The position numbers and the translations under genes are program-made. From Eledone cirrhosa (lineage: Eukaryota): DNA of 64,000 nucleotides. This document shows, one piece after another, positions 31,351 to 61,071 of the stretch (position 1 is its first letter; each line of letters starts with the position of its first letter). The stretch lies in the NCBI GenBank assembly GCA_964016885.1, contig OZ024746.1, positions 9,300,001 to 9,364,000 on the forward strand. The letters are read 5' to 3'. Below the pieces are notes generated by a model. The model was not told the DNA's origin and searched no databases. It saw only the letters and a program-made list of their open reading frames with translations.

Positions 31351-32935
31351 CTTTGCTGATCTCCTATTTAATATCACAAACCCACACATTCCCTCTACAA
31401 TTCACAGCTCAGACTCTGGATTGTGATCACTACATCCAACCATTATAAACGAAAAGTACGTAATAACTTTACAAATATAACAATAAAGCTTTCTACCCCC
31501 ACCTAGTTAAGTCGACAACATACGTGTTTTTGGTCTGCTTTTCAGGACACATGTAGAACTACTCAACCACAACAGTGATTGCAAACTTTACACAGCCTGA
31601 GAACAATCACAGCTGCAGCTGCATTCTTATATACTTTGTGAAGTTTCAGAATCTTCCTGATTAAATTATTTTATATGAAAGGATAAATTGAATTTTCATT
31701 GAAAGATAAAGCATTTTCGGTATAAATAAATTTATGTCATTAATATCTTCAACAAAATCAGGTATTTTTATTTTATTTTATTTTATTCATTTATTTATTC
31801 GATTTATTTATTTATTTTGTTATTTATTTAGTTGTTTGCTTTGAAACTGTTTCACTTCTTAATTGTAAATTGTTCCTCATGCTGTGTCAGAAAAATAGAG
31901 CTAGTGTTTTATCCAAGAGGCATTTTTTACACTCAATCAACTGCAGAAATTTTCTGAAGAGAATTACCAGGTGTTTAGTTGTTTGAATGAGGCACATGCA
32001 ACGCCAAACACACAGTCTTCGATGTAGCAACAACTATGCCAATAATTATATGGATACAATCTCAGATGTTGCACCTACGTAAAAAATAAATATTTGACAA
32101 GATGTTTCAGTATTCTTTTGTCACCTTGCCTGTTGTTGAATTTTATATCCCTAAATCACCCTTCTGTTGTTGTTTTATTCGCTGGTGTCACATTTCTAGA
32201 AAACTTTAACTTCTTTAAAATACTTCGAAACGTCATTAAATTCCATTTCAGTAGATTGTGGAAACAAAGTTTTGTTTGATGTGTGTTACATTCTTTATTT
32301 ACTTATATATTTATTCATACATTTTCATTATTCGCTACCGAATAGAAGAAAAAGTGTTACTTGTGAGATTTGTAAACTATAACAACCAATCGATATGGCG
32401 ATGCACAGTATTGATTAAAGTAACCTGGAAAGAAAACTTTATAAAACTTAATCGATGTATCTTCGTTTAAACACTCGTTGAAATCATTAATCCATATAAA
32501 CATAAATTCTTCATATAGCGTAAAATGTGTTATAACTACTAACTGTCTATTTACATAGCAACAGCCGTCGAGGCATTGCAAACAATTCAAATTACATATG
32601 GTCATATACAGCACCTACTTACGCATACCTACTCACTCACTTCTAAATCTAATCGGACATACAAACAAACAAACACAATTGGGTGTGTGTGTATATATAT
32701 ATATATATATATACATATATATATACATATATATATATATATATATATATATATATATATATATATATATATATATATATATATATATATATATATATAT
32801 ATATATATATGTAGGAGGTGAGTTTTATTGTAGTACAATAAAGCAATGCAGATATCGGATAAGAAGCACTCTACAGTTTGTAGGACTGGAGTATGCATAA
32901 TATAAGATCAAAAGATGGTTAAAGGAGTTCCATGT

Positions 32936-33004
32936 ATTTTATTATGCGCATTTCAAAAACAAACATCATCATGCAATAATATTTGTGTTTTCATCAGATA
33001 AAAC
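32936..33004 (-). ncRNA. Type I HHR (family B)
   Basis: Mirror of 33121-33189. Confidence 0.88.
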
Positions 33005-33120
33005 AGGAGAACATGATATGAAGGCTAAAAAACACTTGTGGATAGTGCAGTTTTAAATCTACATATGTTTAAAACTGCACTATCCACAAGTGTTTTTTAG
33101 CCTTCATATCATGTTCTCCT

Positions 33121-33189
33121 GTTTTATCTGATGAAAACACAGATATTATTGCATGATGATGTTTGTTTTTGAAATGCGCATAATAAAAT
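33121..33189 (+). ncRNA. Type I HHR (family B)
   Basis: ttttat CTGATGA aaa-c-acagatattatt-gcat-gatgatgtttgt-t-ttt GAAA tgcgca TA ataaaa. Confidence 0.9.
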
Positions 33190-33602
33190 ACATGGAACTC
33201 CTTTAACCATCTTTTGATCTTATATTATATATATATATATATATATATATATATATATATATATATATATATATATATATATATATATATATATATATTT
33301 AATACAATCACAGAGATAGCTTAAAGCTAAACTCTGACTGGCAACCATCTCACTCAACAAACATTAGGTTATATGTTAGTATAAACCCAATTTAAGTGTT
33401 TGGGGTGCTAACTATATGTATTATGTGGAAAGCCAGTTGTATTATTTTATGAGATATAATTAAAGTTAAAATACATATATATATATATATATATATATAT
33501 ATATATATATATATATATATATATATATATATATATGTACATATATATCGTTTCTGAATTTGTTTAGCAAGATTCTTTATCTGAAAACGTGTGTTGAAAC
33601 TG

Positions 33603-33860
33603 ATATTGTTATGCTTTGGGAGGGTCATGTTGCCAATAAAAAACACACGCACCAGCTGCTTTCACTCCAATTTATTATAAATTAAATTTATAAATTTAAG
33701 AATTTATAAATGTCCGGTTGGTCGGTTGGTTCCACAACCGGACGGTTGTTCATATATTGTCAAAGTTCTTTCGTCACACATTCTGTGACCTCTTCAGTGA
33801 CTGGGATTCTTTTCTTTATTTTTGTGCCTCTCCTTCTTTTTTTGTTCCTTCCTACGCCAT
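33603..33860 (-). mobile_element. PLE-type family D 3' end with intact HHR at 33759-33801
   Basis: gtca CTGAAGA g-gtcac-agaatgt-gtgac GAAA gaac TT tgac; homologues at 4905-4940, 51675-51910, 63035-63200. Confidence 0.8.
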
Positions 33861-34189
33861 CGTTGTGGTGTCGCTCTAGACACCTTTGTAGTCACCCGTC
33901 GCCACTAATCTATATTCTCTGTCATGCGTAGAAGGGTCTAGGTGATGTGACCTGTTCAGTCTTTGAGGTTGTTGGACCAGAATTTTTTTTTGTCTGCCTC
34001 TTCTTCGCTCTTCCCTTTCTGGGACGGAAACTATGCAGAAGATATACACACACAAACACGCACACACTCACTCACACACACACACACACACACACACACA
34101 TATGTACACATATACATACACACATATACGTGTGTGTGTATGTGTGTACAATATTATTGCAACAGTTGATGGTGTACATATCATTATTC

Positions 34190-58337: not shown

Positions 58338-58476
58338 TATATATATATATATGTAAGAGGTGAGTTTTATTGTAGCACAATAAAGCAATGCAAATATCGG
58401 ATAAGTAGCACTCTACAGTTTGTAGGACTGGAGTATAAATAATATAAGATCAAAAGATGGTTAAAAGAGTTCCAAG

Positions 58477-58547
58477 TATTTTATTATGCGCATTTCAAAA
58501 ACAAATATCATCATGGGATGATATCTGCGTTCTCATCAGATAAAATA
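58477..58547 (-). ncRNA. Type I HHR (family B) in PLE terminal repeat
   Basis: tattttat CTGATGA gaa-c-gcagatatcatc-ccat-gatgatatttgt-t-ttt GAAA tgcgca TA ataaaata. Confidence 0.9.
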
Positions 58548-59629
58548 GGGAGACATGATATGAAGCTTAAAAAAACACTTGTGAACAGTGACGTTTTAAA
58601 TCAACATATGAAAAAAAAATTAAGATAGATGTATGAGATTGGGAAAAAAAGTGAGGGGTTGGGTTGGAAAAGGTAAGGAAGAGGAAGAAATAAGAGTAAA
58701 GGATAGTGGGGGAGGAGTATAAGAAGGAAGGATGAGAGAGGAGAAATGGCTGATAGAGAGAGAGAGAGAGATAGCCTTTACAACTGAGAAAATATTGTCT
58801 CACAGAGAGAAATTAAAAAACCATTGGAAGATAATAGATAATTTAAAAGATTTTGAAATTAAAAGTTAATGAGGTTTATGCACGAAGAAAAAGGAATTAA
58901 GAATAGTATTAAATTAAGGTTTGTATATTGAAGGGTTTAATAATGTGTGCGAAGAAAAGAATTTATTAATATGTATTATTAAAATAAAAAATATTAAAGA
59001 TATTAAGGATATAATGTGAAAAGAAGGAGAAGAATAAATGAGCTATGAATTTAGAGGAATTAGTTAGGGTTTAAGTTTGTTTTTATGTAGTGTAATATGT
59101 ATACGTATATAGTATGTTTAAAATGAGCGCGGAAGGAGAGGAGAAAAAAGAATGTTTAAGGAAGAAAATATCTAACGTCAAAAAGTATATATGTTTACGA
59201 AATATTTTCTAATGGTAATATTATAATATATTAAAAAGAAATTAGTTAGGGTTTAAGTTTGTTTTTATGTATTTTTATGTATATGTAAAAATAAAATTAA
59301 GTATTAGGTTTAAAACGCGAATAGAGAAGAAAAATTTAAGGAAGAAAAAAATATCTAACGTCAAAAAGTTTATGTTTACAAAAGATTCTAATGGTAATAT
59401 TATAATGTATTAAAAAAATAGTTTTAATGGCCAATAATATGAGGAGAGATGAAAGAATGGGTGATGCTGTAGTGAGTAATAATATGAATTGAGAAGTAAT
59501 TGGGAAGAATGACATAGAATGAGTAAATTGTTTATATAATATATTATACTGAAAAAAGGTAGAAAGATGGGTATATCTGTAAAAGATATTAGAGAAAAGA
59601 GGATATTAAAGTAATAAGGTATTGAGATA

Positions 59630-60810
59630 TTAGCTGTATACTTTATGGAATGTTCTATGGAATTTATGCAAGCAGAGCGAAAATAAAGCTGTGCGTCTAT
59701 TTATTATAGAATTGAAATTAGATATAATGGTAAATTGCTCGGCTAGGCAGAGATTACATGTTCTGGATAGGGAAGAATTCAGGTAAGGAAAGGCGGAACA
59801 AACCTTCCTCCAAGAGATGTTATAGTTAATATTTTTGTCTTTTAAGGACCATATGAGTTCAGAGAGTGCCGTGTTAGTTCTTTTAAGTTGGCATTTAAAA
59901 GACGATTTGTGATTATAAAATCTAGCTTTGAAGGAAGTGGAAGTGGAACCGAAGTAGGTAAAAGAATTAGTATCAGTTATAACCTTATATTCATAGACTA
60001 AGTTTTTATCAAGACAATGGTTATTAAGAGGACATTTAGTTTTAATAGGGCAATTACAATTACGATTAGAGAAATTAACAGAGTTATTAACAAGTGACCT
60101 AATATTATTTATAGAAGGAATTGGATTGGAGAAGTTATTTACGATAGGAACAATAGTTTCCTGATTTAGATTGGTATTATGAACATTCAACGAAGTTACG
60201 TTTGACGTCGTATTTAAATTTACAGAATCTAGCCTAGAGTTAACAATGACGTCGGATATACTACTGCTATTATTATGACGCTCAGTTCAAATCCCGCCGA
60301 GGTTAACTTTGCCTTTCATCCTTACGGGGGTCGATAAAATAAAGTACCAGTAATGCACTGGGTAATTGCTGGCCTTGTGCCTAAAGTAGAAACAATTATT
60401 ATGACGCTCAATTTTGGAAGGATGTAATTTATTATTTAATATTTTATTGTTGTGTTTAGAGATGTTGGAAGTGGTGGAATAAGAAAATTTAATTGTATGT
60501 TTGTTAAAGATTTTACTATAAATATGTGAGGTAGGAAAGCATTTATCTAAGACCCTAAAGAATAGTTTAGGAATATTATTATTAATAGATAGAGAAAAAG
60601 AAGCATTATACCAAATTATATTTTTGTATCTAGGTCTTTTATTTAAGTTATTGGAATGTTCATAATTAATTATTTTACTATAAGACCTTCGATGATTGGT
60701 TTCCTTACTGTATTTAATTTTATCAGGATAACCGGCTTTAGAAAGCACATTATTATACTAATTGACATTAGCGTCGAAGATATCTTTATTAGAGGATAGA
60801 TTTGAGATTC
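59630..60810 (-). pseudogene. PLE linker plus GIY-YIG endonuclease, interrupted by a SINE
   Basis: CNC...CPL...CL..NLVYEY...TYFGST...FKARFYNHKSSF...LSELIW...CNLCLAE; upstream IIWYN..FS...IFNKHTIKFSYS; removing 60285-60410 rejoins the two ORFs in frame. Confidence 0.9.
60285..60394 (+). mobile_element. 5'-truncated SINE family 1 with perfect 16-bp TSD
   Basis: attattatgacgctca at 60269-60284 and 60395-60410. Confidence 0.95.
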
Positions 60811-60814
60811 TTTA

Positions 60815-61071
60815 AGCACCATAAATTGAATTTGATAACAACGTCAAACTAGCTAACTTATTGGATATATCCCTTAATATTGACACTGGCCTATATTACC
60901 CTTACCATAAAAACAATGAGAATCTAAATTATGTTAATTTTAAATCTAACCACCCCACTAACATTAAAAATGCTATAGTCAGTAATATTGAAAAAAGAAT
61001 CTCAAATCTATCCTATAATAAAGATATCTTCGACGCTAATGCTAATTACTATAATAATGCACTTTCTAAAG
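60815..61071 (+). pseudogene. Inverted PLE RT C-terminal segment
   Basis: NLLDISLN...YYPYHK...YVNFKSNHP.NIK...RIS.LS: PLE RT thumb motifs. Confidence 0.85.

Follow-up and report, generated by a model that had tools for sequence, protein, structure and literature searches.

Introduction

Inverted pseudo-long terminal repeats (pLTRs), tails, targeting of (TA)n and pLTR-borne hammerhead motifs are already known features of Penelope-like elements (PLEs). Within this group the Hydra clade has been defined by an RWK motif, DKT, a CxCx5C linker, the lack of CCHH, and CxxC together with CxH (PMC8557442). For Poseidon, the insertion terminus has been demonstrated in vitro to be an internal point of the tandem unit (PMC11167929), while covarying families of PLE hammerheads have been described, and a circular template proposed, in PMC4209133. 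Outside the PLEs, full-length L1 insertions may bear an extra G, which is accepted as the mark of a cap (PMC11702581). Questions of interest for PLEs are how the inverted ends form, which strand is copied and what role the hammerhead plays. Here we analyse a palindrome at 32.8 kb in a 64,000-nucleotide stretch of the Eledone cirrhosa genome (contig OZ024746.1, positions 9,300,001 to 9,364,000; 'the window'), together with the PLE family to which it belongs. Since about 20,000 hammerhead motifs occur in this one genome, counts are large enough for questions of Penelope copying to be tested.

The palindrome is a recent head-to-head, 5'-truncated insertion of a Hydra-clade PLE into (TA)n, and a relative, not the offspring, of a broken copy lying nearby at 58-61 kb. 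A head-to-head insertion with a tail on one arm is an already known type. The new element here is a 5' stop confined to one base and accompanied by an extra G, together with its contrast with the long copies of the family.

The palindrome and its coding family

The palindrome is asymmetric, the right arm repeating 161 nt without the last 86 nt (Table 1), and the sole difference between the arms is an A in the left where the right has G. As the preliminary description of the window had proposed, 32811-33067 aligns end to end with a second sequence near 58352-58610, situated downstream of an open reading frame (ORF) for a GIY-YIG endonuclease and on the same strand. Compared with 58352-58612, 231 of 261 alignment columns are identical and the 26 mismatches comprise 18 transitions and 8 transversions; by BLAST within the window, the identity to 58353-58610 is 89.5% over 258 nt (E = 9e-96). 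The two sequences share an orientation, their sense strand being the minus strand as for the ORF, and both, read in that sense, end at a (TA)n tract. The 58-kb match lies around 1.0-1.3 kb downstream of the ORF stop. Equally sound was the suggestion that the palindrome represents the 3' terminus of a coding Penelope element type: it is the pLTR of a coding Penelope-like family.

The same description named the 58-61 kb element as the autonomous parent of the palindrome. The common family and terminus, and the level of identity just given, speak for this, but the copy is 5'-truncated, covering only residues 412-819 of 821 so that the reverse transcriptase (RT) core is absent, and its frame is broken by an in-frame stop at 60758-60760 and by an insert. 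The GIY-YIG match of this remnant in Pfam is weak (E = 0.018). Furthermore, much closer ORF-bearing copies exist. The E. cirrhosa genome (3.0 Gb) was searched with the arm and 40 of 372 candidates were scored; among these, at least 16 loci, the window included, are identical to the palindrome arm at 257 of 257 positions. The outer arm matches the ORF-bearing copies L048, L047 and L203 at 256 of 257 positions, and each of the 19 arms compared in ORF-bearing loci resembles the palindrome (97-99.6%) more closely than it does the 58-kb copy (88-91%). Given these far nearer copies and the broken frame at 58-61 kb, the right family had been recognised but the wrong copy named, and parentage by this particular element is scarcely credible. 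The link to 58 kb is the ordinary relation of two subfamilies in a known clade. Over 212 codons the two subfamilies differ synonymously only at 54 codons and non-synonymously at 43, as would be expected of two once-active lineages. The best other genomic match of the 58-61 kb copy is 98%, and the remainder of its inverted arm was not found in the next 20 kb beyond the window.

The coding capacity of the family is best seen in L048, which has an open frame of 821 codons, a single ORF with RT followed by a C-terminal GIY-YIG domain, and the motifs FD..SYY, MG, YRDD and LIY...YFG. The whole L048 protein matched no Pfam family, and a PDB sequence search gave no meaningful match; 18 homologues were found at E ≤ 1e-20. 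The features of endonuclease-bearing PLEs are present, namely pLTRs derived from partial tandems, an inverted 5'-truncated copy, an optional tail and no poly(A). So too are those of the Hydra clade. An RWK motif replaces GxKF/Y (RLRWTA in L048, RWK in most aligned homologues) and DKT (residue 144) replaces DKG; the CxCx5C linker appears as CNCRIKNKC at 680, and CxxC and CxH as CNLC at 780 and CLH at 808, beside conserved E and N. CCHH is lacking, only one Cys being situated between the GIY and YIG equivalents, and insertion into (TA)n is combined with a canonical 3' hammerhead. Membership of Neptune, Nematis or Penelope-Poseidon was rejected since the CCHH zinc-finger motif of their endonuclease is not present in L048. 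The family is Hydra-clade Penelope-like as placed by its motif set: a young, very abundant new family within a known clade, for which a literature search covering few subscription papers found no published description. Between RT thumb and zinc linker, L048 (L048:2829-5291) contains an Asn-rich insert of about 70 residues that is absent from 13 aligned homologues and recalls the N-rich inserts of rotifer Penelopes (PMC3846280).

A one-base 5' stop at the palindrome axis

Across the genome, the axis base is the exact first base of 3,994 young arms with a non-templated neighbour, a count that leaves out arms with a C from the partner arm, compared with 4,753 running through, so that around 46% stop. 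For the older subfamily the corresponding figures are 476 and 843, about 10 of 100 listed rows in the former being run-through copies with a point change, and in a position-sampled set 34 of 99 arms stop at this base. The predicted hammerhead cut site, on the other hand, shows 183 starts (1.4%), approximately half of 100 listed being point changes, against 13,019 arms running through; hammerhead-cut linear RNA as the template is thus unsupported.

The base preceding the axis stop was counted by hand in the first 100 rows of each subfamily, yielding G 46, T 43 and A 11 for the young arms and G 31, T 46 and A 23 for the older. At the cut site, used as a control, G precedes 8 of about 45 truncation-like rows (p = 0.0008 versus the young axis stop). 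Where T precedes, it usually belongs to the (TA)n target or to an overlap with the partner arm. The G often occupies a place where the element has C. It is also found between (TA)n and element in the solo copies L022 and L062, and one insertion (L018, L127) has it on each arm. The axis site is TCATAT in all three subfamilies, a sequence that we take to be initiator-like. From these genomic patterns we consider it moderately likely that the axis base (window position 33066, minus strand) is a capped transcription start.

Several points weigh against this. The palindrome in the window itself lacks the extra G. In the older subfamily the G signal is weaker (31 of 100; p = 0.07 versus the same cut-site control). 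Many G junctions can also be read in other ways, as a templated base of the partner arm (9 of 46), microhomology with CATGATATG inside the arm, or an 8-nt duplication. Finally, the upstream pLTR reaches the axis site in 18 of 30 ORF-bearing loci, representing 14 independent insertions, and not one of these 14 starts at the axis base (p = 0.0002-0.002 if the stop rate is 46%). A splice acceptor at the axis (TAG) was also considered and rejected, most copies having TTG. No published cap-derived G in Penelope insertions was found in the literature search, which covered few subscription papers.

Arm ends and formation of the palindrome

At their other end the 257 distinct arms fall into two main groups, one of 123 with the last base at sense position 257 and one of about 100 stopping at 161-177; nearly every arm is followed there by (TA)n. 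Of the 30 loci that contain the 5' end of the ORF, 28 have at least the final pLTR bases joined directly to it, and at 22 arm ends the element sequence continues for three more templated bases. The continuity from pLTR to the next unit, together with the extra bases, places the insertion terminus at an internal point of the tandem unit. The first hairpin of the tail varies in its fold between subfamilies; the 8-bp hairpin near the tail end is retained by both main subfamilies, with no covariation, and has lost 2 pairs in the third.

We consider it likely that the head-to-head insertion arises by two reverse transcriptions, both run to the probable capped 5' end of the RNA, within (TA)n. Intact copies consist of one ORF encoding RT and GIY-YIG in partial tandems, where the pLTR is joined directly to the following unit at its 5' end, and arms end at sense 257 and around 171, the difference being the tail. 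The enzyme would cut both strands of (TA)n and prime one cDNA at each of two sites. Some 46% of young arms then stop at 33066, where the G would be a copied 7-methylguanosine (m7G) cap, and the cDNA ends would anneal through the self-complementary ATAT/CATATG to give the 420-bp palindrome. Selection would, with modest support, keep the hammerhead with its helix II in source copies, the linear cut product not being the usual template. The 58-61 kb copy would be a dead older-subfamily insertion made by the same route.

The alternative, proposed for Penelope in PMC3846280, is self-priming fold-back, in which one cDNA or antisense template folds at CATATG and copies itself, the stop being a hairpin hot spot. 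The axis is indeed a 6-bp palindrome, perfect palindromes are found (L025, L029, L049, L050, L066, L104, L114, L120) and 32 short palindromes have 9 rare variants common to both arms. However, solo arms joined directly to (TA)n stop at the identical base, and fold-back does not account for a G or for short inserts at the axis. Of 28 paired junctions, 7 have a tail-less arm that extends further 5', 9 have a tailed arm that does so, and at 12 the two arms share their stop; in the first 7 the tail-less arm cannot be a fold-back copy of the tailed one. This pattern favours separate priming of two cDNAs over copying by fold-back. In addition, 71 arm pairs differ at 163 sites and have only 12 rare ones in common, mostly in old copies, for which later conversion is possible. 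Overall, fold-back is an improbable origin.

Two separately primed cDNAs may also be set against copying of a short palindrome as a unit from a master palindrome, as in a non-autonomous family resembling miniature inverted-repeat transposable elements (MITEs) or retrozymes. Thousands of copies near one length would suit this, and non-autonomous elements derived from PLEs are described in bioRxiv 10.64898/2026.07.22.740005, but the junction varies from copy to copy, the subfamily variants of long copies recur in short ones, and L021 is the sole locus where a tandem monomer array of the palindrome unit was seen. We regard such a family as very improbable. A non-LTR retrozyme, made of tandem non-coding hammerhead monomers, was rejected, the arms being inverted and parts of a coding unit.

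Some further observations concern individual palindromes. Short palindromes with rare variants common to both arms (L066, L045, L073, L131, L059) suggest gene conversion between the arms; L066 has four such variants and no difference between its arms. The 8-nt duplications at some junctions, and two extra 116-nt copies in L021, suggest that template jumping recurs at the 5' end of the RNA. A-to-I editing as a source of A-to-G changes was rejected, rare A>G changes on the sense strand amounting to 1.86 per 1000 as compared with 2.41 for T>C.

Long copies and a possible second template

The lack of an axis stop in all 14 long insertions means that one capped transcript cannot explain all copies, and the long copies seem to come from another template. 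One ORF-bearing locus ends 3 nt past the axis site. A five-unit head-to-tail array (L213-L215; G000:C6:38068900-38089500) is built of 3.66-kb units, with an inverted piece and (TA)n as its borders. Its units have in common three changes, including a frameshift, carried by none of 25 other copies. The array fits repeated copying of one circular RNA, but it also fits an origin from a source locus already in tandem, or unequal crossing-over at a later time.

Tentatively, two RNA templates may be envisaged: a capped linear RNA that starts at the pLTR edge and yields thousands of cap-marked stubs, and a circular or multimeric RNA that is made by the hammerhead and yields the long copies, the five-unit array among them, which traverse start site and cut site alike with no stop. 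If this is true, the template is the sense strand, a promoter start has been mapped to one base from DNA alone, and the Penelope hammerhead gains a role.

Hammerhead motif and stem II

The stem noted previously in both copies as stem II corresponds to helix II in a type I hammerhead motif, an identity, unnamed in the preliminary description, that accounts for it. The core CUGANGA...GAAA...UH is present with helices I-III, the outer-arm motif having also stem I and a palindromic stem III, and CUGAUGA occurs at 32997, 33128 and 58539; conservation of the core is partly built in, some loci having been sampled by the core pattern. Genome-wide, the hammerhead pattern occurs 19,910 times and its reversed control not at all, and the third subfamily contributes 829 matches. 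An Rfam scan of the window gave no hammerhead family match at gathering score, only a U6 copy. The folds of the 32.8-kb and 58-kb copies are not unusually stable (z = -0.78 and -1.86).

In each copy stem II has 12 uninterrupted pairs and a further 3. That all 12 are kept had been stated correctly, although the string quoted for the palindrome, acagatattatt, comes from the right arm (33139-33150) and not from 32811-33067. The 12 pairs of the 58-kb stem carry 4 changes when compared with the right arm and 5 when compared with the left, the latter comparison giving one more at the basal pair. The substitutions do interconvert G-U and Watson-Crick pairs, all being one-sided transitions. Selection on RNA structure had been suggested on this basis, but with 6 of 6 changes pair-preserving (p = 0.047-0.16) the two copies by themselves do not beat transition bias.

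A larger sample lends the suggestion modest support. From 327 distinct arms, 281 cover the hammerhead; one per insertion leaves 206 and removal of 34 from the third subfamily 172 insertions, a sample biased in that about 60 loci were picked by best identity and about 100 motifs by exact core pattern. Alleles present in at least 4 insertions were considered propagated. The 7 propagated alleles of helix II are all transitions and all keep pairing, whereas pairing survives 7 of 16 transitions and 0 of 23 transversions among the rare alleles (Fisher p = 0.014 for transitions only, 6e-5 for all changes). Adding one propagated G-U/A-U swap in proximal stem I gives 8 of 8 (p = 0.009). Propagated transversions number 0 of 7 in stem II, as against 3 of 4 in loop II and 6 of 15 in the 5' flank, and the basal pair of stem II is variously A-U, G-U and G-C across the three subfamilies.

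Transition bias and the shared descent of a few subfamilies might produce these changes with no selection on structure. The null for the two copies, an analytic null for the 7 of 7 (p = 0.03-0.11), the weak fold z-scores and the fixed mismatches of the third subfamily are compatible with such neutrality, as is the success of Naiads lacking hammerheads (PMC8557442). Similarly unfavourable to selection, the seven propagated changes are tied to subfamily history and not independent, no two-sided change occurs in stem II except across subfamilies, the basal pair in the two main subfamilies is A-U or G-U and not the usual G-C, and the middle of stem II contains a bulge and a U-U mismatch in the third subfamily. 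The difference between propagated and rare alleles, the lack of propagated transversions in stem II and the three forms of the basal pair nevertheless argue the other way, and we view the neutral explanation as rather unlikely. Selection on helix II is likely but modest, as expected of a hammerhead.

Other features of the window

Two asymmetric, (TA)n-flanked palindromes of a different family, with a mutual identity of 83.5%, lie at 6970-7435 and 26010-26470; they have hammerhead motifs on both strands (7184/7331 and 26198/26366), and a related fragment is found at 21881-22033. The 3' ends of a third family occur at 58040-58336, 54565-54733, 3075-3193, 8841-8910 and 56158-56231; a small hammerhead, whose helix II has 4 bp, is located at 58220 and at 54604. 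The first of these ends and the 58-kb Penelope copy are placed tail-to-tail at one TA tract.

The insert in the broken ORF belongs to a 120-bp repeat present at about 20 other places in the window (for example 9805-9926, 16857-16978 and 35335-35452), up to 97% identical, which from its B-box-like start we take to be a short interspersed element (SINE). Minus-strand fragments at 61074-63070, broken by microsatellites, are presumably the RT end of a CR1/L2-type long interspersed element (LINE); the piece of this region that was scanned gave no Pfam match. Also present are a 5'-truncated U6 small nuclear RNA copy (5214-5285, minus strand; 58 bits), a 38-bp tandem array with a 9-bp substructure (13066 to about 14300) and a repeat of 13-codon period (3679-4206).

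Table 1. Features of the palindrome and of the older copy (window positions; UTR, untranslated region).
Feature	Position	Strand	Evidence or remark
(TA)n target tract, left	32692..32810	.	sequence
Outer arm, whole pLTR (257 nt) of young subfamily, ends in tail	32811..33067	-	257/257 at 15 other loci
86-nt tail, outer arm only, 8-bp hairpin near its end	32811..32896	-	arm ends 257 vs about 171; fold and pair table
Type I hammerhead motif, outer arm	32935..33005	-	CUGAUGA (32997-32991), stem II (32990-32955), GAAA; predicted cut after 32943
Palindrome axis CATATG	33062..33067	.	A at 33066 (minus) is the family-wide 5' stop, probably a capped start
Inner (inverted) arm, sense positions 11-171, tail-less	33068..33228	+	160/161 identical to outer arm
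Second hammerhead motif, inner arm	33120..33190	+	sequence
(TA)n target tract, right	33229..33298	.	sequence
pLTR with hammerhead (58547-58477), older sister subfamily, ends at (TA)n	58353..58610	-	sequence comparison
3' UTR of older copy with internal repeats	58611..59629	-	73-79% to L048 in parts
Broken ORF remnant: RT thumb end, Asn-rich linker, CxCx5C, GIY-YIG endonuclease	59630..60811	-	70% amino-acid identity to L048 residues 469-819
SINE-like insert inside ORF	60285..60395	+	16-bp direct duplication flanks (60269-60284, 60395-60410)
Start of older copy's inverted arm (residues 412-494), cut off	60825..61073	+	comparison with L048

Comparison with known systems

The closest relatives are the Hydra-clade PLEs with a C-terminal endonuclease (Craig et al. 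2021, PMC8557442), Hydra-1_Obim included. They have in common with the present family RW(K/T), DKT, CxCx5C, the lack of CCHH, and CxxC/CxH, and likewise (TA)n targets, a 3' hammerhead and an inverted 5'-truncated copy (Penelope-13_HM, File S1). There are also differences. The unit is 3.66 kb here and 1.1-3.0 kb in the listed Hydra families; helix II has 15 pairs, against 3-7 in the Hydra rows of File S2; the tail is 86 nt where 30-40 is typical; and the hammerhead is unlike that of Hydra-1_oBim. The Asn-rich insert is a further distinction.

Poseidon PAc (Frangieh et al. 2024, PMC11167929) resembles the present family in that two fixed internal ends define the tail and targets are AT-rich. Both strands are cut and extended there, a dimer is predicted, and insertion is independent of hammerhead cleavage, with no reads ending at the cut site. 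It belongs to another clade, and the present case, known from genomic sequence alone, differs in that its tail precedes the start of the ORF and that an extra G accompanies a fixed 5' stop.

The hammerheads of metazoan PLEs (Cervera and de la Pena 2014, PMC4209133) are similarly type I and situated in the pLTR, with a long helix II and a palindromic helix III, and they too include opposite-strand motif pairs 100-700 bp apart and covarying families. Here, in contrast, helix II is about twice as long, G10.1-C11.1 is seen only in the third subfamily and, in the register used, there is no unpaired base after position 9. Finally, the full-length 5' junctions and twin priming of L1 (PMC11702581) share with this family a non-templated G at a fixed 5' end and two primed strands joined by microhomology. 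Priming in L1, however, takes place at poly(A), and the inverted parts of an L1 insertion have no overlap, whereas here both arms duplicate one sequence.

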